64,000 bases of DNA from a virus (Duplodnaviria > Heunggongvirae > Uroviricota > Caudoviricetes). This document shows, one piece after another, positions 3,114 to 38,391 of this stretch. The stretch is taken from positions 15,651 to 79,650 of the IMG/VR virus record IMGVR_UViG_2563366977_000001. One strand, given 5' to 3'. Below the pieces are notes generated by a model. It worked only from the letters and a program-made list of their open reading frames with translations, was not told the origin of the DNA and did no database searches. The position numbers and the translations under genes were made by a program. How positions within the stretch are numbered: the first letter of the stretch is position 1; every line of letters starts with the position of its first letter.

Positions 3114-3126
3114 AATTTTCTAACAT
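3114..3126 (+). promoter_or_regulatory. Recurrent operator-like motif AATTTTCTAACAT, 16 bp upstream of ORF 3142
   Basis: One instance of a motif found at 12 or more promoter-proximal sites in the window; variant copy in opposite orientation at about 3062-3074. Confidence 0.45.
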
Positions 3127-3141
3127 AAAGCATTAGAACAA

Positions 3142-3534
3142 ATGGCGTACAAGATCTTCGTTTCATACAAAAATGGTGCTAAAAGCCATTCTCTGAATAC
3201 AAGCAGCAGATGCCTTGTAGAAGCTCAACTGTCATCAATCCTTACTGAAAGAGACATTCTTTCCCTGGCTGAACGGATCGTGATTCTCCATTCAGGAAAG
3301 GCTATTCTTAATGTTCCCGCGCTTACCCCGCCTTCTGACGTTTTGGCATCTGTTAAGTGGCCTCAAATTGGCACGCCTGTAAGAGTGGAAGATCCTGTAA
3401 CGACCACTCTTTATATGCCGAAGTCAGTAAGGGATTGGCTTGCTGCGGTTGGTAATGGGAAGGTCAGCGCGGGGCTTAGGAAGCTGGTTGAAATGGCTGA
3501 TATTCCGGAGCTGAAAAATGCATGGAGACAGTGA
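3142..3534 (+). CDS. Hypothetical protein
   Basis: 130-aa ORF preceded by operator-like motif; no recognisable domain. Confidence 0.35.
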   Translation: MAYKIFVSYKNGAKSHSLNTSSRCLVEAQLSSILTERDILSLAERIVILHSGKAILNVPALTPPSDVLASVKWPQIGTPVRVEDPVTTTLYMPKSVRDWLAAVGNGKVSAGLRKLVEMADIPELKNAWRQ

Positions 3535-4004
3535 GTAGAGGAAACATGAGTCACGCGAACCCATCGAAAACACAATATCGTTTAATGCTGGCTATCGCGT
3601 CAGCTATACCAACCAGCCTGAATCCACCCGCTGGCTATCCCGCTATTGTTGATGATTGTTTTCAGTATTACGGTGAAGACATCCTGAGTCAGTCTAAGGC
3701 ACTCAAACAGTTATGCAAGGCAGGCATTCTTCACTGCATAGGCGATCCAGATGATTTTGTAGTCATGCTGGCAGATCGTGACTCTTTTCTGCTGTCCTGG
3801 AAAGCCGGGGCGCGCGAAGCGCGTTTGGGTAATGGTATTGGCTACATCGACTATAGCGATTGTCCGCTGGCATTTGCTGGTGGATATATGCATTGGCATG
3901 AGCGAAATAGAGGCCGTCAGCGCCAGTATCGCTTGAGTGACTTTAACGTCTGTCACGGTTTCGAAGAAGCTGACAGCCAGGACATCTGGCTTCAGGAGCC
4001 TTAA
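3522..4004 (+). CDS. Hypothetical protein
   Basis: 160-aa ORF overlapping the previous ORF by 13 nt. Confidence 0.35.
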   Translation: METVSRGNMSHANPSKTQYRLMLAIASAIPTSLNPPAGYPAIVDDCFQYYGEDILSQSKALKQLCKAGILHCIGDPDDFVVMLADRDSFLLSWKAGAREARLGNGIGYIDYSDCPLAFAGGYMHWHERNRGRQRQYRLSDFNVCHGFEEADSQDIWLQEP

Positions 4005-14457: not shown

Positions 14458-14608
14458 AGGTCGATTTATCAGGTATCGAAAGGAAGATTTTCGGGAGATT
14501 GTGATTTTGGATGGAGGAGGGGAATTGTTGCAATATGCACTTGCGCACGGTGCAACGGTGCGCTATCATTATGACATTCATTAATAATCATGGAGGATAA
14601 GATGATCG

Positions 14609-14911
14609 ATGAGCAAAAAGATTAACATAAAGAATTTCAGGGATGAGTGGCTTGATGATTTTTTTGAATTTTCAATACCACACAAAAAGATACCTTCTGA
14701 TATTCAGATTACATTGTTGCGGAAGCTGGATATTATCAATGCTGCAACTACTTGGAAGGACTTGAGATCACCACCAGGTAATCGGTATGAGGAATTGTCA
14801 GGGAAGCTAAACGGCTATTCATCAATAAGGGTGAATAAGCAATACAGGTTAATTTTTAAGTGGGTTAACGGAAAGGCCGAGGACTTGTATCTCGACCCTC
14901 ACAAATACTAA
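14609..14911 (+). CDS. higB: HigB-family toxin (plasmid maintenance killer protein)
   Basis: 100 aa; toxin-first arrangement with HTH antitoxin directly downstream. Confidence 0.7.
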   Translation: MSKKINIKNFRDEWLDDFFEFSIPHKKIPSDIQITLLRKLDIINAATTWKDLRSPPGNRYEELSGKLNGYSSIRVNKQYRLIFKWVNGKAEDLYLDPHKY

Positions 14912-14982
14912 AACAAATACCCGGCGGATGGGCCGGGTACTGACCAGAGTCCACTTAATACGCACGCTAGTAAGGGCAAAAA

Positions 14983-15321
14983 ATGAAACAGGCAACCAGA
15001 AAACCGACGACTGTAGGTGATATCCTGCTGTACGAATACCTGGAGCCGTTAGAGCTTAAGATCAACGAGTTAGCAGAAATACTTCATGTTCATCGTAACA
15101 CCGTAAGTGCTCTTGTTAATAATAATCGTAAGCTAACGATGGATATGGCATATCGCCTGGCAAAAGCATTCGATACTTCTGTAGATTTTTGGATTAATCT
15201 TCAGACCGCAGTAGACCTGTGGGAAGTCGAAAATGATATGCGCGTTCAGGAAGAGTTAAGTCGTATCAATACTGCTGAAAAATTTATTTCTCAGCGGAAC
15301 CTGAATAAAAAAGCAGCCTGA
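14983..15321 (+). CDS. higA: HigA-family antitoxin (XRE-type HTH)
   Basis: 112 aa with HTH (ELAEILHVHRNTVSALVNN) and HigA-like C-terminus. Confidence 0.7.
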   Translation: MKQATRKPTTVGDILLYEYLEPLELKINELAEILHVHRNTVSALVNNNRKLTMDMAYRLAKAFDTSVDFWINLQTAVDLWEVENDMRVQEELSRINTAEKFISQRNLNKKAA

Positions 15322-15340
15322 TATAGTAAAACACATACAA

Positions 15341-15366
15341 AAAGCCCACTTAACAAGTGGGCTTTC
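15341..15366 (+). terminator. Hairpin terminator after higA
   Basis: AAGCCCACT-TAACA-AGTGGGCTT stem-loop followed by T-rich tract. Confidence 0.5.
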
Positions 15367-15377
15367 CTTTGGAATTA

Positions 15378-15738
15378 ATGAACATTAAACCTATCCGTAC
15401 AGAACAAGATTATGAGGCCGCACTGCGTGAAGTCGAACCGATGTTCGATAACGAACCGGAAATGAATACCCCGGAAGGTGATTTCTTTGAGGTCATGTGT
15501 CTTCTCATTGAGGAGTACGAGAAAAAACATTATTCCAATTGAGCCACCATCACCTATTGAAGCCATTAAGTTCCGTATGGAACAGCAAGGGCTGACCGTG
15601 AAGGATCTGGAACCGGCTATTGGTAAATCAAATCGTGTTTACGAGGTGCTAAATGGGACACGAAATTTGACGTTACCTATGATTCGCCGTTTACATTCCC
15701 AGTTTGGCATTCCTCTTGAAAGCCTAGTTGGTGTTTAA
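15378..15738 (+). pseudogene. Second HigA-like HTH antitoxin gene split by a 1-nt frameshift in an A6 tract
   Basis: ORFs 15357..15542 and 15478..15738 together resemble one HTH antitoxin; they differ by +1 frame at GAGAAAAAACATT (about 15521-15533). Confidence 0.45.
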
Positions 15739-15799
15739 GTTTGGCGGTCTGGATGACCGCTTTTACCAAAAGTAAAGTTAAGAAGGTTTGATTGTTTAT

Positions 15800-16537
15800 A
15801 TGAGCAAAGATTCATCATTAGAAAATAAAGATGAAAATATCACTGTCAAGAATACAATCGAAGAAGCCATTAGAGACAAGTTATTTAATAAGTTGTTTGC
15901 ATATGTTGTGGTTTCTTTTTTTGTCGTTAACTGGCAGGATATTTTCATTTTATTTAAATCAAAGTACGATATATATACGACATTATCTATAGTATGGGTA
16001 GGTGATGAGTATAATATCCCCTTTTTGCCATCATTCATTTTGCCACCATTTGTAGCTCATTTTGTCATGCCATTTATATATGGCACTGTTGCGTCTGTTA
16101 TTATACCTTATGTTACGTTGTTTATATCGAAAGCCACAGGTAGAAATTATGCAAGGATACGATATCTTGATTATGAATTTGATTTGAAAGAGAAAGCCAA
16201 AATAGAAGATTTAATGTTTGATCTGCGTAGCAAAGAAAGCGCCAGATTAGATTTGGATGCAGCAATAGAGGAGAGAATAAAATCATTAAGTGCAATCGAC
16301 TCTAAGAACAAAGAGCTTCTGGACGACAGAGTTGCTTTGTTCGAAGGCATAAAAGCGATAGTGGATGTATATACAGAAAAAAATAAAAGAATCTCCTCGC
16401 CTGAAGATTTTGTTGATTTATTAAAGGCTGTGGAAAGAACTGATTTTTATAAGGATATTGGTTTGTCTGGCATAAATGATTTAATAGCTGATTTAAAGAA
16501 TACTTACGAAGACATACTTAAACCCATGTCCGACTAA
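15800..16537 (+). CDS. AT-rich two-TM membrane protein with cytoplasmic coiled-coil domain (defence/exclusion candidate)
   Basis: Two hydrophobic helices then charged helical C-terminal half; very low GC relative to flanks; own terminator. Confidence 0.5.
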   Translation: MSKDSSLENKDENITVKNTIEEAIRDKLFNKLFAYVVVSFFVVNWQDIFILFKSKYDIYTTLSIVWVGDEYNIPFLPSFILPPFVAHFVMPFIYGTVASVIIPYVTLFISKATGRNYARIRYLDYEFDLKEKAKIEDLMFDLRSKESARLDLDAAIEERIKSLSAIDSKNKELLDDRVALFEGIKAIVDVYTEKNKRISSPEDFVDLLKAVERTDFYKDIGLSGINDLIADLKNTYEDILKPMSD

Positions 16538-16545
16538 CGCTTAAA

Positions 16546-16563
16546 AGGCGGATTTTCCGCCTT
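16546..16563 (+). terminator. Hairpin terminator (GGCGGATTTTCCGCC)
   Basis: Stem-loop immediately after stop of the membrane protein gene. Confidence 0.5.
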
Positions 16564-16630
16564 GCTTTGATGACTTTGATGTAAAACATTTTTTCAGCTA
16601 TTTGAACACCATGATGGTGTTATTCGTGAT

Positions 16631-17110
16631 TTGTCATTTCTTGATGCTCATCAGGCTGTGTTTGTTCAGCAACAAGAAGGAAAGCAACCGATAGAGTATC
16701 GCTTTTGGGTTACGTACTCTTTTCACTGCTTCACAAAAGACTATGCACACCAGACTGAGGAAGAGAAACTGGCGTTAATGTACCACGCCCCTAAAGAGTC
16801 TCGTCCATTTTGTGAGCGTCGCTATAATCTTGCCAAACTTCACTTAAAAGAGGCAATTCTGTCATTGTCGGAAGGTAAGGTGATCCATGCCGGATACGGA
16901 AGCTATGCCGTTATTGAGGTAAATATTGGGGAGGGTAACAAGGAGTATTATTTTGTTGCGTTTAAGGCTTTCAGGGAAAAGAAAAAGTTGCGGTTACACA
17001 TCACTAGCGCCTACCCGGTATCAGAAAAACCAAATGGCAGGTCAGTGAAGTTTTTCGCAATCGCATACAATCTGTTAAGGAACAAACCGCTTCCTAAGCC
17101 ACCAAAATAA
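16631..17110 (+). CDS. Hypothetical protein, independent cargo unit
   Basis: 159-aa ORF followed by hairpin AAAGCCCACCTTAAGGTGGGCTT at about 17111-17133. Confidence 0.4.
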   Translation: MSFLDAHQAVFVQQQEGKQPIEYRFWVTYSFHCFTKDYAHQTEEEKLALMYHAPKESRPFCERRYNLAKLHLKEAILSLSEGKVIHAGYGSYAVIEVNIGEGNKEYYFVAFKAFREKKKLRLHITSAYPVSEKPNGRSVKFFAIAYNLLRNKPLPKPPK

Positions 17111-17335
17111 CAAAGCCCACCTTAAGGTGGGCTTCGCCAGAAATTATTTTCTGGTATTCAGAACGCCATTACCGGACTTTGCCTTGACCAAGTATCACAA
17201 CAGGCTTGACCTGTTATGATAGCTGGTTGCGGGATGTCTGAATTTCTTCAGTCTGCTGCATCCTCGAAGGTTTGGTTCAACATGTACCATTCCTTCACCG
17301 TCATAATAGTGAACTATTCACGTCCTTACAAACAC

Positions 17336-18541
17336 TTATACATTTTTTACGTTGTTCTTCACATACGCCATGAACATCTTTTCGGCTTGTGCTGGTGGTG
17401 TTCCTGCCATAACAAGCGCGTCAATGAACGCCTGCTTCTTCAGTGCGAACTGGTCAGCAAGACGTTGCTGAAGTTCCTTGTTTTTCTGCTTCTCCCGTTG
17501 CAAAGCAGCTTCTTTTGCCGCTGCCCGTTTTTTCTGTGCGTCGGATAACTTTCTGGCCCTCGTCAGTTGGTCGCGCAGCTTGTCGATCTTACCGTTGTCC
17601 TTTGCCAGTTTTGAGCTTAAAGCGGCCTGGCGTTTCTGATAGAGCTTCCATTCACGTTTAGCTGCCTCAACATTCGTTTTGCTGCTACGGTTTCGATTGA
17701 ACGCCTTCTCGTCTTCTTTTGTGAAGTGTTTTGTCGTGCGGCGGCGATCGTCACCAAAGGCAACTTGCGTTGCAGCTTTTTGCAGGGCGCGAGCAATACT
17801 CATCTGCCAACTGGCAGACTGTAGTCGTGTCATTGAGTGGATCACATGTTTACAGGCGACGCCTTGCAGCTTAGGGTTGCGAACTTTTGGATAGGCGTAT
17901 TCTTTTGGCGGGGCCAGGGCAAAGTTACCCGCAGTGGCGATGTAGCGATACCAGTATTGATGGCGACCGCAGTCACAATCGAAAGACACTCGCCCGGCAC
18001 ACAGTGATTTTGTGACTTTCAGGGCTGATTTATCGTCTTCTGCGATGTCATCGACCATCTGATCCCATTCTTCAAAACGTACCCGGACAATGTGGTGCTG
18101 GTGAACGGATATATCGGACGCTTCCACGCGGATATTAATCACATTGTGACGAAGAGATACGGGCGTAGCTCTTTTGATACCAGAACCGTCGTCTACGGCG
18201 TTATTTGCTCGCTTAATATCGATAGCCTGGCTGGACGCTACCAGTTGTGCGTATGTAATGCCAGCCGTCTTGCTGTCGTATTTTTCGCGTGCTTTGCTTC
18301 GCAGCTTTTCGAAGCCTTTCAGATCGTCACGCGTAAAGAACGTGCCGCCTTTCTTTTTCCCCAGCTTAAGAATGTCTTCGGCTGATTTATTCCTAAGCCT
18401 GCCCGGCGTGAGTGTCCTGTGCGCCTGGCGGCGTTTGCGGTTTTGCTCTTTCCTGATGAGTTCAAATACGCGTGTGAAATCCTTAGAGGACAGGCCGTCA
18501 GTGATATATCGCCCGTCCTGATTTTTCAGGAAGTCAGGCAT
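17336..18541 (-). CDS. SWIM zinc-finger protein with lysine/arginine-rich coiled-coil tail
   Basis: C-x-C-x(n)-C-x-H pattern (FDCDCGRHQYW ... CKHVIH); C-terminal K/R/Q/A-rich helical region. Confidence 0.5.
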   Translation of the reverse strand: MPDFLKNQDGRYITDGLSSKDFTRVFELIRKEQNRKRRQAHRTLTPGRLRNKSAEDILKLGKKKGGTFFTRDDLKGFEKLRSKAREKYDSKTAGITYAQLVASSQAIDIKRANNAVDDGSGIKRATPVSLRHNVINIRVEASDISVHQHHIVRVRFEEWDQMVDDIAEDDKSALKVTKSLCAGRVSFDCDCGRHQYWYRYIATAGNFALAPPKEYAYPKVRNPKLQGVACKHVIHSMTRLQSASWQMSIARALQKAATQVAFGDDRRRTTKHFTKEDEKAFNRNRSSKTNVEAAKREWKLYQKRQAALSSKLAKDNGKIDKLRDQLTRARKLSDAQKKRAAAKEAALQREKQKNKELQQRLADQFALKKQAFIDALVMAGTPPAQAEKMFMAYVKNNVKNV

Positions 18542-18863
18542 TTTCTATCTCCGGTGCCGAGCCAGCGTAATCGCGAATCTTGTTTCTTAGCCATGCTGCG
18601 TCAGGAAGAGTTAACGTTGTCCCTACCGGCATTTCTTCCATTTCTGACTCATGGCCCACCAGCACGCGAAATACCCAGCGCAAATCAGCGTTGCCATAGG
18701 CGCGATAGGCCGCCAGGTCTGAGCGATAAACCTCATCAATTTTTATCGTGTACTGGAAATTATCGGAGTGATACTCCGATACCCGCTTGATCATCTCCTG
18801 ATGGAATAGTGCGCGCAGCACATCGTCTTCAATGCATCGATCGTCGAGCCTGCTGTAACTCAT
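18534..18863 (-). CDS. Hypothetical protein co-transcribed with SWIM protein
   Basis: 109-aa ORF overlapping SWIM gene start by 8 nt. Confidence 0.4.
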   Translation of the reverse strand: MSYSRLDDRCIEDDVLRALFHQEMIKRVSEYHSDNFQYTIKIDEVYRSDLAAYRAYGNADLRWVFRVLVGHESEMEEMPVGTTLTLPDAAWLRNKIRDYAGSAPEIENA

Positions 18864-18955
18864 AACAGTTCCTCACAGTCATAACCTGGGGGGAACTGTA
18901 TGCAGGGTGTGAAATGCGAGAAAGCAGCGTCACCTTGCCTGGTGACGCTGTGAAA

Positions 18956-19237
18956 TTATGCGTGTGAAAATAATGGACGGATGTTTGGGCGAGCGGTTTG
19001 CGAAGCAACCCAAAGCTCATACTGGGATTGCATACCGGTCCACATTTCGGCACTGGTTCCAAGAGCGGACTCCAGACGAAGTGCCATATCAGCGGAAATA
19101 CCTGTTTTTTCGTTCAAAATTCGGGAAAGTGCCGTGCGAGTAATGCCTAATGCAGCAGCGGTGTCTGTGACTGATATGTCTCCCAAATATTCACGAAGAA
19201 CCGCGCCTGGATGCGCGGGATTATGCATACGACTCAT
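18956..19237 (-). CDS. HigA-family HTH antitoxin-like protein (third gene of a TA operon)
   Basis: 93 aa; [21 protein letters not shown]; start overlaps upstream antitoxin stop (ATGA). Confidence 0.6.
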
Positions 19238-19533
19238 ATGTGGAAAGCAACCCGTTTACCGGTTGGCAATTCAACGTCCAGACTCAACTTCCCACCCATA
19301 GCCTCAACGTAACGTTTAAGCGTTGCCACTTTCAAGTCATTGCCTCGTTGTTCAAGTTTTGTGATGGCTGGTTGACTAATTCCCATCGCATCGGCAACTG
19401 TTTTTTGTGATAACTGAAGCTCCTCTCTCAACATCTGCAATCCGACTTCCAGAATCATTTCATCAGCCTGCTCTTTGATACGAGCTTGGCTTTCAGGGGA
19501 TTGCGCAGCAATAACTTCTCTTAGAGTTCTCAT
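19234..19533 (-). CDS. XRE-family HTH antitoxin
   Basis: 99 aa; [24 protein letters not shown]; overlaps toxin stop. Confidence 0.65.
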
Positions 19534-19880
19534 TATTTTTTCTCAAGTTCTGCAAGATGGTTGGAAAATTCGTCGTCTGCAATCCGTATCATTCTTTCGT
19601 AGAACTTTTTATCGTTACTTTTATCTCCGGCGCACAGGATTATGGCTTGCCTTACCGGATCAAATGCGAAGAATGCTCTGATAGGGCGACCAGCGTACTG
19701 AATCCGTAACTCCTTCATGTTTTTATGGCGTGAGCCTTTAACTGTGTCGGCATATGGCCTTGATAATGAAGGGCCATATGTTTCCAGATTGATCAGGTCA
19801 ACCAGGATTTTTTCTTTTAATGCAGGTTCCTGTTCCTGGAACCATTCATCAAAAATTTTTCCAAAATAAATTTGCCACAT
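19533..19880 (-). CDS. RelE/ParE-superfamily toxin (phage Gp49-like / HigB-like)
   Basis: 115 aa; conserved KELRIQYAGRPIRAFFAF...IILCAGDK pattern typical of Gp49-like toxins. Confidence 0.7.
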   Translation of the reverse strand: MWQIYFGKIFDEWFQEQEPALKEKILVDLINLETYGPSLSRPYADTVKGSRHKNMKELRIQYAGRPIRAFFAFDPVRQAIILCAGDKSNDKKFYERMIRIADDEFSNHLAELEKK

Positions 19881-19916
19881 AGTTATTCAAAATCCTTTTT
19901 AATAAACTACATGTTA

Positions 19917-19951
19917 TAAACTACAGGTTATAGCATATAACCTGTAGTTTA
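19917..19951. promoter_or_regulatory. Palindromic operator upstream of the toxin-antitoxin operon
   Basis: TAAACTACAGGTTATA-GC-ATATAACCTGTAGTTTA perfect palindrome plus a direct half-repeat AAACTACATGTTATA. Confidence 0.55.
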
Positions 19952-19985
19952 TATTTTCAAGACCGTTTTTTATTCGATTTAGCAT

Positions 19986-20639
19986 TTAAAGTATCACGGT
20001 ATCCTCATCAACTTCTGTCCCTGCCAGTGACTTTGGCTGGGAGGCGGCTGCTTTAACCTTCTCATGCCCAATAATGGACAGGAACGAGGCCATTATCCCT
20101 GCTTTGTTTTCTTTCTCTACCGATCCAGTCATTTGCTTCAGGTAATCCGCGCTGGCAACATTGTGGTATACCGTTGCATAGCAGCACAGAATCATCAGGA
20201 TGTGCTCTGGTCGGATATCTTGCCAGTTAACTCGATAAACCTCTTCACCGTTGCCGTTGTATTCGGTATCGACGATAGAGTCGGGGATCTCGAATGCCCC
20301 TTTGTTCTTGTCAGGCAGGGATAGCAGCCTTTGTAGTTTCAGCTCTCGGTATCTCTCCATGCCGACAATGATCGCCGCTCTGCCGTCGGCGTGCCGTGTT
20401 TTTAATGTTACCTGGCTGGCACCTGTACCGGCTGAAATGGTTGGCGTGATTTCGTCAACCAGCACCTTAAATTCACTTTTACGCAGCTCGGCAATTGCTG
20501 GTGGAATTTTTCGTTTTTGTTCAATAGCAGATGCTGGGAGGGGCTTTACTTTGTCAATTACAAGCGCACCGTCTTTCAGGACTGCCGTAGCCATCAGCGG
20601 CTTGTTAGTCGAAAGGCTGAATATTGCGATCTTTTGCAT
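19986..20639 (-). CDS. Hypothetical protein
   Basis: 217-aa ORF, no recognisable motif. Confidence 0.4.
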   Translation of the reverse strand: MQKIAIFSLSTNKPLMATAVLKDGALVIDKVKPLPASAIEQKRKIPPAIAELRKSEFKVLVDEITPTISAGTGASQVTLKTRHADGRAAIIVGMERYRELKLQRLLSLPDKNKGAFEIPDSIVDTEYNGNGEEVYRVNWQDIRPEHILMILCCYATVYHNVASADYLKQMTGSVEKENKAGIMASFLSIIGHEKVKAAASQPKSLAGTEVDEDTVIL

Positions 20640-37789: not shown

Positions 37790-38011
37790 ATGCAATCCAT
37801 TAACTTCCGTACCGCGCGCGGCAACCTTTCTGAAGTGCTCAACAATGTTGAAGCCGGGGAAGAGGTTGAAATCACCCGCAGAGGCCGTGAGCCAGCAGTA
37901 ATTGTCAGCAAGGCTACTTTCGAAGCCTACAAAAAAGCGGCGCTGGATGCTGAATTTGCATCCCTGTTTGACACCCTGGACTCCACCAACAAGGAACTGG
38001 TTAACCGATAA
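37790..38011 (+). CDS. phd: Phd antitoxin
   Basis: [39 protein letters not shown] ... matches my recollection of P1 Phd essentially residue for residue. Confidence 0.9.
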
Positions 38012-38391
38012 TGAGGCATATATCACCGGAAGAACTTATTGCGCTTCATGATGCGAATATAAACCGCTACGGCGGCCTGCCGGGAATGTCAGATCCGGGT
38101 AGGGCAGAGGCCATTATCGGGAGAGTTCAGGCCAGAGTTGCCTACGAAGAGATCACCGACCTTTTCGAAGTCTCCGCCACCTACCTGGTGGCTACAGCGA
38201 GAGGGCATATATTCAATGATGCCAATAAGCGTACCGCGCTAAACAGTGCGCTGCTATTTCTACGCCGTAACGGTATACAGGTATATGATTCTCCCGTGCT
38301 GGTGGAACTTGCGGTGGGGGCTGCAACTGGTGAAATCCCCGTATCTTCAGTAGCGGAAAAACTACGTGAACTATATGGTTCCAATATTTGA
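38011..38391 (+). CDS. doc: Doc toxin (Fic-fold kinase)
   Basis: 126 aa immediately after phd with overlapping stop/start; matches my recollection of P1 Doc. Confidence 0.9.

Follow-up and report, generated by a model that had tools for sequence, protein, structure and literature searches.

Why does an operon that already encodes a toxin and an antitoxin end in a second antitoxin gene, which belongs to another family and has no toxin next to it? This question is raised by a locus in a 64,000-nucleotide stretch of a virus record (IMG/VR IMGVR_UViG_2563366977_000001, positions 15,651 to 79,650; the whole stretch is referred to below as the window). Three overlapping genes on its minus strand encode a Gp49-like toxin of the RelE/ParE superfamily, an XRE-type helix-turn-helix (HTH) antitoxin and a HigA-family HTH protein. 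A preliminary description of the sequence had proposed this toxin-antitoxin (TA) unit, and all three open reading frames (ORFs) were found where it had placed them, with ATGA start/stop overlaps at both gene junctions (toxin and XRE genes overlap at 19533-19536). It had also treated the third gene as a member of the TA operon. This holds in so far as the three cistrons form one unit, but the gene is neither a designed nor an ancestral component of it; it is very probably the remnant of a resident higBA module.

The explanation that accounts best for the locus as a whole, and to which we give a probability of about 0.6, has three parts: a Gp49-XRE cassette replaced the toxin half of a higBA module, the incoming pair works as an autoregulated addiction module, and the retained HigA neutralises the HigB of sibling plasmids in trans.

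The window aligns over most of its length with the plasmid NZ_AP027414.1 (91-99% identity), and it has structural genes in common with P1 and D6. Judged by its sequence, it is a D6-like (P1-like) phage-plasmid of Escherichia coli.

Origin of the three-gene operon

The trio lies in a slot between mat, the homologue of a maturation control gene, and a gene resembling gene 26 of P1. The siblings NZ_AP027414.1, NZ_CP127300.1 and NZ_CP099330.1 have a PF05015 HigB (93 amino acids) followed by a HigA (93 amino acids) in this slot, which is empty in phage D6 and in NZ_CP085065.1. The window is approximately 99% identical to NZ_AP027414.1 from position 17000 to 19238, where the similarity is lost; it resumes at 19986, at the mat stop codon. 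The breaks at 19238 and 19986 therefore indicate that 747 bp now stand where higB, its promoter and neighbouring backbone spacer used to be. Compared with the empty slot, the higBA cassette of the siblings covers positions 3125-3844 of the higBA-carrying locus L001; a further 219 bp of backbone spacer are therefore missing from the window.

The left junction is readable at single-base resolution. Upstream of higA the coding strand has CACAT, as have the ends of homologous XRE genes, and this runs straight into ATGAGT, the start of higA. Thus, the last isoleucine codon of the XRE gene is ATA and its stop codon TGA is formed by the ATGA of higA. The XRE homologues terminate with ...RVAFHI* and the window protein has this native C-terminus (...RVAFHI), so the junction coincides with the native XRE stop codon.

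Homologous Gp49-XRE modules were surveyed by scanning one genome per species, which yielded 80 loci with toxins 50-79% identical to the one studied here; the window locus is not among them. The XRE gene follows directly downstream of the toxin gene in all 80 loci. A HigA-like gene was found within 3 kb of the module in none of them (0/80), and a consistent third ORF after the XRE gene was not found in these loci either. The absence of HigA-like genes from the neighbourhood of the homologous modules argues that HigA is not an ancestral third component. The higBA pairs of the slot, in turn, diverge in step with their backbones (higA 90-97% identical on backbones that are 83-99% identical), and related higBA pairs are also present on IncF plasmids. 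Altogether, it is highly probable that the trio is a mosaic, in which a Gp49-XRE cassette replaced the toxin half of the resident higBA in a D6-like phage-plasmid.

A terminator-like hairpin is located after higA. It folds at -21.8 kcal/mol (z = -3.25), and none of 200 shuffled sequences was equally stable. L001 has it and the empty slot of L006 lacks it, which assigns it to the old higBA cassette. Positioned between the TA genes and the baseplate gene, this hairpin could influence read-through of late transcription. A second terminator-like hairpin predicted within higA (19201-19218) is at chance level, with one match against 1.3 expected, and its sequence is conserved as coding sequence in the siblings.

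Distribution of the trio

An exact-protein look-up in NCBI draft assemblies, ENA metagenomes and Logan identified 30 contig loci with the trio, a few of them from the same assemblies and most on contigs of about 90 kb. All 30 have the order Gp49 (115 amino acids)-XRE (99)-HigA (93) between mat and gene 26, with identical junctions. The 90% identity cluster of the toxin represents 251 contigs. The trio region is 98.2-100% identical among the loci and occurs in two main haplotypes; this near-identity together with the single junction indicates a single origin. The outer flanks of the trio loci (L008-L027 and L109-L118) are 87-100% identical and carry differing neighbour cargo, and thus the block has moved across recombinant backbones.

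At an identity of at least 80%, no record in INPHARED, PLSDB or 5,426 complete E. coli genomes covers the cassette, and an exact search of IMG/VR with the 36 nucleotides of the junction gave no match. The trio has thus been seen only through the exact-protein look-up in draft assemblies and Logan contigs.

The third gene encodes a HigA-family protein

The third protein matches the NCBIfam model TIGR02607 (HigA) with E = 5.7e-28 and 96.6 bits (equivalog cutoff 47.7), and it matches the solved structures of GraA, Pseudomonas aeruginosa HigA and Proteus vulgaris HigA with E values from 1e-12 to 1e-9. The commoner HigA allele of the trio loci is protein-identical to the HigB-paired HigA of NZ_AP027414.1, from which the window allele differs by two amino acids (M21I and A26T). 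All 30 trio loci have an uninterrupted higA ORF and the exact ATGA overlap, in both haplotypes and on several recombinant backbones. The ratio of non-synonymous to synonymous changes (pN/pS) of higA against its relatives is about 0.1-0.2. A Shine-Dalgarno sequence was not found within 15 nucleotides of the window higA start codon; the sibling higA has GAGGAA. The representative of the HigA cluster (P0121) lies on a contig of only 696 bp and was uninformative.

Directly upstream of higA lies the XRE antitoxin gene and not a gene for a PF05015 HigB, which departs from the context of the HigA family. A tblastn search of the window with the sibling HigB gave chance matches only. The preliminary description had stated that a cognate toxin is missing nearby, and an adjacent HigB is indeed absent, but a small HigB profile found one PF05015 gene in the 64-kb window, about 4 kb from the trio on the plus strand, together with its own HigA (14609-15321). 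This HigB-like toxin is 32% identical to the sibling HigB that pairs with the trio HigA.

The Gp49 toxin and its XRE antitoxin

The toxin matches the Pfam family Gp49 (PF05973) over model positions 1-89 of 90 (E = 1.3e-21, 76.9 bits, cutoff 23.9) and PHROG 3445, annotated as 'toxin' (E = 6e-30). A sequence search against PDB chains returned nothing at E<=1, and the fold was therefore examined with a predicted structure. The AlphaFold2 model has a predicted local distance difference test score (pLDDT) of 90.8. The top PDB matches of the model in Foldseek were Streptococcus pneumoniae HigB (6af3/6af4, template modelling score 0.65-0.75), Vibrio cholerae HigB2 (5jaa) and Pyrococcus horikoshii RelE (1wmi), each with a probability of 1.00. 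According to the model, the toxin has the RelE/BECR fold. Vibrio cholerae HigB2 had been considered as a member of the Gp49 family; this was dropped, since a table in PMC11980606 places it under PF06296, and it is kept as a fold neighbour only. Toxins of the gp49 family are described as ribosome-dependent mRNA degraders encoded in the order toxin, then antitoxin (PMC11980606).

The XRE antitoxin matches HTH_3 (E = 2e-9) and HTH_37 (28.2 bits, cutoff 27), with the HTH at residues 32-83; the N-terminal part of about 30 residues is presumed to neutralise the toxin. Weak sequence matches to the structures of Mycobacterium tuberculosis HigA3 and HigA2 were also found. Homologues of the module in Acinetobacter and Psychrobacter are 50-54% identical.

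Two observations on these families stand apart. One of the 80 surveyed loci (L046, Rodentibacter pneumotropicus) has an 87-amino-acid ORF at approximately 3670-3930 that starts 13 nucleotides past the XRE stop codon; its product resembles an antitoxin-type HTH protein and may be a tandem antitoxin paralogue. Furthermore, the last 100 residues of the PADLOC defence candidate NsnC match the Gp49-like toxin (E = 3.7e-8), and thus the toxin domain is reused in a larger defence protein.

Promoter and predicted operator boxes

The preliminary description had reported a perfect palindrome of 35 bp upstream of the toxin gene. The inverted repeat is indeed perfect, but it consists of two arms of 18 nucleotides around a non-palindromic spacer of 3 nucleotides, 39 bp in total, and it ends at 19953 and not at 19951 (Table 1). 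The extra half-site was confirmed: box 3 matches at 16 of 17 positions and sits further downstream, in the leader. At up to three mismatches, the 17-mer of the boxes occurs three times in the window, always in this promoter, against 0.14 occurrences expected; none of 100 shuffles reached three.

Homologous modules have paired inverted boxes of 17-18 bp, of the type TATAAGCTnnAGCTTATA, shortly upstream of the toxin start codon. The two-gene module L004 from an E. coli plasmid is laid out like the window promoter, with TTGAAA, a box that fills the 17-nucleotide spacer, the -10 hexamer and a second box, but has two boxes in total. Since two-gene Gp49-XRE units elsewhere have the same kind of boxes, the palindrome is assigned to the XRE antitoxin, and by this comparison it came with the Gp49-XRE cassette. 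XRE has an HTH domain, and the three boxes cover the -35/-10 region and the expected transcription start; binding of XRE to them is predicted. In the Gp49-type HigBA2 system of Acinetobacter baumannii promoter activity is repressed by the antitoxin, assisted by the toxin as a co-repressor (PMC5906591). That the palindrome is the site of HigA is very unlikely. The palindrome of the sibling higB promoter, TGTGTATACACA, which presumably is the operator of that module, has two matches in the window at two mismatches against 1.97 expected, which equals chance.

Position 19933, in the 3-nucleotide spacer, is the only common polymorphism within the inverted repeat. The -10 hexamer reads TATGAT in the commoner haplotype (16 of the 20 trio loci L008-L027) versus TATGCT in the window, and the two haplotypes may differ in promoter strength through this position.

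Three co-directional, overlapping cistrons behind one promoter would also be the layout of a true tripartite TA system, in which HigA is either a dedicated regulator, as in PaaR-PaaA-ParE and omega-epsilon-zeta, or a second antitoxin for Gp49. Three-component systems exist (PMC11980606, PMC5105189), and the three boxes found here exceed the two of the relative L004. The boxes, however, match the operators of the XRE family, and XRE already has an HTH of its own, with which HigA shares only a marginal match. HigA has the same or almost the same sequence as the antitoxin of a toxin unrelated to Gp49: the sibling HigB and the Gp49 toxin could not be aligned at E<=100. Together with the lack of HigA-like genes in the homologous modules, this makes a tripartite system very improbable.

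Table 1. Features of the three-gene operon, its surroundings and other TA genes in the window (positions refer to the window).
Feature	Position	Strand	Remarks
Gp49-like (PF05973) toxin, RelE/ParE superfamily, 115 aa	19533-19880	-	Pfam, PHROG, predicted fold
XRE-type HTH antitoxin, 99 aa	19234-19533	-	cognate partner of the Gp49 toxin; Pfam HTH_3, HTH_37
higA, 93 aa	18956-19237	-	TIGR02607; very probably the retained antitoxin of the displaced higBA module
Left recombination junction (probable)	19234-19238	.	homology to higBA siblings ends at 19238, one base before the higA ATG
Incoming cassette (probable), 747 bp	19239-19985	-	promoter, operators, toxin and antitoxin; in place of higB, its promoter and the 219 bp spacer
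-35 hexamer TTGAAA of the cassette promoter	19955-19960	-	consensus scan, 9/12 matches, 17-nt spacer
-10 hexamer TATGCT	19932-19937	-	consensus scan; across the 3-nt spacer of the inverted repeat
Operator box 1 (predicted), TATAAACTACAGGTTATA on the coding strand	19936-19953	-	one repeat arm; fills the -35/-10 spacer
Operator box 2 (predicted)	19915-19932	-	other repeat arm; directly downstream of -10, over the expected transcription start
Operator box 3 (predicted)	19902-19918	-	direct copy of box 2, 1 mismatch, 14 nt start-to-start
mat, maturation control homologue, 217 aa	19986-20639	-	upstream flank, co-directional; stop codon is the right cassette boundary
P1 gene-26-like baseplate wedge subunit	18534-18863	-	downstream flank, co-directional
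Terminator-like hairpin after higA	18925-18950	-	10-bp stem, 6-nt loop, then CUUUCUCGCAUUU; by folding
HigB-like toxin	14609-14911	+	PF05015, E = 1e-34
HigA-family antitoxin, 112 aa	14983-15321	+
Small HTH ORF, 86 aa	15478-15738	+
ORF, 249 aa	15788-16537	+	no family match
phd (73 aa) and doc (126 aa)	37790-38391	+	97.8% identical to sibling plasmid over the region

Proposed role of the retained HigA

By analogy with its family, the operon would be autoregulated: XRE dimers, with the toxin as co-repressor, would bind the three boxes on the sigma-70 promoter (TTGAAA-17 nt-TATGCT). The fold and the family suggest that the Gp49 toxin is a ribosome-dependent mRNA endonuclease that is neutralised by XRE, and that the pair acts by post-segregational killing. 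The architecture suggests that higA, stripped of its promoter, operator and Shine-Dalgarno sequence, would be made only as third cistron by termination-reinitiation coupling to XRE. HigA would act neither on the Gp49 toxin nor on the palindrome. Its identity to the sibling antitoxin suggests that its most likely activity is neutralisation, in trans, of the HigB of sibling higBA plasmids. In that case the trio plasmid could enter cells with higBA siblings, or displace these, and escape killing by HigB, while imposing its own, different addiction.

The partition regions (parM and neighbours) of the window and the higBA sibling are 98.3% identical, so that both elements probably compete for the same cells; higBA siblings and the trio plasmid are probably incompatible. 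HigA has no toxin in cis, and matching HigB toxins are found on siblings and on E. coli IncF plasmids, as is characteristic of an orphan antitoxin. Anti-addiction by orphan antitoxins has been described (PMC7354431, PMC12548467). Because the commoner trio HigA is identical to its cognate antitoxin, the sibling HigB is the more directly suggested target, which points to anti-addiction and plasmid competition rather than to anti-defence.

A target in the host would be the other choice. The preliminary description had suggested a decoy against TA-based abortive infection, in which HigA, by the same neutralisation in trans, would disarm HigB-type toxins of the chromosome or of prophages before these stop infection or lytic growth. 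In favour of this, the window is a phage-plasmid, and phage orphan antitoxins that overcome TA defences are documented, with T4 Dmd and anti-DarT enzymes as examples (10.1101/2024.07.11.602962, PMC7354431). Searches of E. coli genomes found related sequences at nine chromosomal places, counting matches to any part of the query; however, 115 of the 124 matching places are on plasmids, and the closest HigB partners are encoded on sibling phage-plasmids and IncF plasmids. HigA was moreover inherited in place from a complete module and not acquired alone. None of the three proteins matches a PADLOC model of a known defence or counter-defence system that would fit such a role, the only match of the toxin being the domain-level one to NsnC, and the reading presumes that HigB systems abort infection by P1-like phages. 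A role in counter-defence is thus improbable.

The same replacement history could also have left an inert relic, in which case higA would be an undecayed passenger with little or no translation and no target, and only Gp49-XRE would work. The gene has no Shine-Dalgarno sequence, promoter or operator of its own, and for want of the first its translation may be poor. With a divergence of up to about 1.8% the trio is young, and the intactness of higA in the 30 loci therefore lends little weight to selection. In the look-ups made, the window allele with its two substitutions was found in trio contexts only, which could be the onset of drift. Surveys cited in PMC7354431 trace the majority of orphan antitoxins to TA systems that have degraded.

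Apart from the surveys, these points also weigh against the explanation preferred here, that HigA is retained as an antitoxin active in trans, and so do the following. The pN/pS of the trio higA (about 0.16) derives from two non-synonymous and four synonymous substitutions that were perhaps imported by recombination, and with so few changes it cannot separate selection from youth. Being absent from PLSDB and the complete E. coli genomes, the trio is not obviously outcompeting the higBA siblings. The replication gene lies outside the window, so that the incompatibility with the siblings is presumptive. The steps of expression and activity are predictions from sequence, architecture and family. 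As for the origin, the mat allele is at least 98.2% identical across all 30 trio loci and at most 96.1% identical to that of any PLSDB plasmid; an unsampled D6-like lineage may therefore have supplied the cassette and mat together, and the right boundary may not be a second breakpoint. In that case only the left junction would be the event that formed the trio.

The linkage to the mat allele and the mosaic outer flanks suggest that the cassette is transferred jointly with one mat allele and that both stem from a donor lineage that has not been sampled.

Against an inert relic speaks the conservation of the higA ORF and of the exact ATGA overlap in every trio locus, across the two haplotypes and several backbones. 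At the junction neither the native XRE C-terminus nor the start of higA has been altered, a sign that recombinants were filtered for an expressible higA, and the commoner HigA allele is still protein-identical to the HigB-paired HigA. We regard the relic as a possible but not a probable outcome. Expression of HigA from the trio is somewhat more probable than its silence, and selection of HigA for trans-immunity is doubtful. It is likewise only a tentative idea that the trio is a selected composite of addiction and anti-addiction, immune to the HigB of siblings and IncF plasmids and with an addiction of its own that rivals are unable to neutralise. If true, this composite would be a one-sided weapon in the competition of plasmids and phages, and it would explain the base-exact preservation of the higA start at the junction.

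Comparison with known TA systems

By its sequence, the Gp49-XRE pair belongs to the Gp49 'reverse' type II modules (HigBA2Ab of A. baumannii pAB120, HigBA2/HigBA3 of M. tuberculosis, Tad-Ata), which also have a PF05973 toxin with a RelE-like fold, the toxin gene first, an overlapping gene for an HTH antitoxin of about 100 amino acids and, as predicted for the pair in the window, an inverted-repeat operator over the promoter. In contrast to these modules, the trio carries a heterologous antitoxin gene at the operon end, has three boxes and is located in the late-gene region of a phage-plasmid. For the window member, toxicity and repression are predictions.

As in the canonical HigB-HigA systems (HigBA of Rts1/Proteus vulgaris, GraTA of Pseudomonas putida, HigBA of P. 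aeruginosa), HigA is full-length, here with 93 amino acids. The D6-like sibling higBA corresponds to WP_032323275.1 (HigB) and WP_094259667.1 (HigA), and the trio HigA differs from the latter by 0-2 amino acids. Unlike in the canonical systems, an upstream higB, the higB promoter and its palindrome are missing from the trio, where higA lies behind the promoter of another module and is coupled to the antitoxin gene of that module.

Orphan or anti-addiction antitoxins such as the chromosomal ccdA of Erwinia, which acts against F CcdB, or the orphan antitoxins on Bartonella pVbh are likewise antitoxins lacking a toxin, with matching toxins in circulation on competing elements. The element studied here also carries complete TA systems, like mobile elements with orphan antitoxins. 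The trio HigA differs from these orphans in being traceable to the base to a toxin replacement and in being part of another TA operon; its activity in trans is predicted.

Together with the orphan or anti-addiction antitoxins, the higBA-higX locus of Caulobacter crescentus is the nearest precedent in concept: a foreign TA pair landed directly upstream of a resident HTH gene, which gave a seeming three-gene unit of higBA and a regulator whose third gene works independently of the pair (PMC13384398). HigX is an ancestral membrane-bound transcription factor and not an antitoxin, while the resident gene of the trio is, in all probability, the surviving half of an older TA module. The tripartite systems (TAC with HigB1-HigA1-SecB, PaaR2-PaaA2-ParE2 and omega-epsilon-zeta) also have three cistrons in one operon, and the TAC toxin belongs to the Gp49 family. 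In contrast to them, the third gene of the trio encodes no chaperone or conserved regulator, and it does not accompany the pair in any of the 80 relatives. In a literature search, which was not exhaustive, no report came up of a TA operon that ends in a translationally coupled, heterologous antitoxin gene. The components of the trio are ordinary members of known families; their arrangement is a variant that module replacement very probably produced.

Many genomes contain orphan antitoxins, and these have been interpreted either as products of decay or as devices for anti-addiction. To our knowledge, those with a directly readable origin are rare. In this case the ancestral (sibling higBA), the empty (D6) and the derived state (trio) are all present at one locus in one phage-plasmid family. 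The breakpoint is known with single-base precision, and the commoner orphan HigA is still identical to the cognate antitoxin, which makes the locus a natural test system. Three questions could be put to it: does an addiction module limit how it can itself be replaced, so that the toxin goes first while the antitoxin stays; does an antitoxin that is kept help its carrier in competition with sibling elements; and how can translational coupling rescue a gene that lacks a promoter and a ribosome-binding site? Should HigA be inert, the locus would be a well-documented case of mosaic TA turnover in P1/D6-like elements, of value for annotation and otherwise unsurprising.

Other TA genes and features in the window

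A second accessory hotspot of about 2.1 kb (14508-16595) is inserted relative to NZ_AP027414.1. It contains the HigB-like toxin with its own HigA-family antitoxin, followed by the small HTH ORF and the ORF for 249 amino acids (Table 1), and it is the second case in the window in which a TA pair is followed by an extra HTH gene. The phd-doc locus brings the window to three complete TA loci, in addition to the orphan HigA.

The gene-25-like 'phage tail protein' (401 amino acids, 17336-18541, minus strand) has a Cys/His pattern, FDCDCGRH...ACKHVIH, that is similar to a SWIM zinc finger. This protein occurs in alleles of 398 and 401 amino acids, with differing neighbour cargo in most loci: a YjaZ-like gene versus a PF09907 HigB pair.

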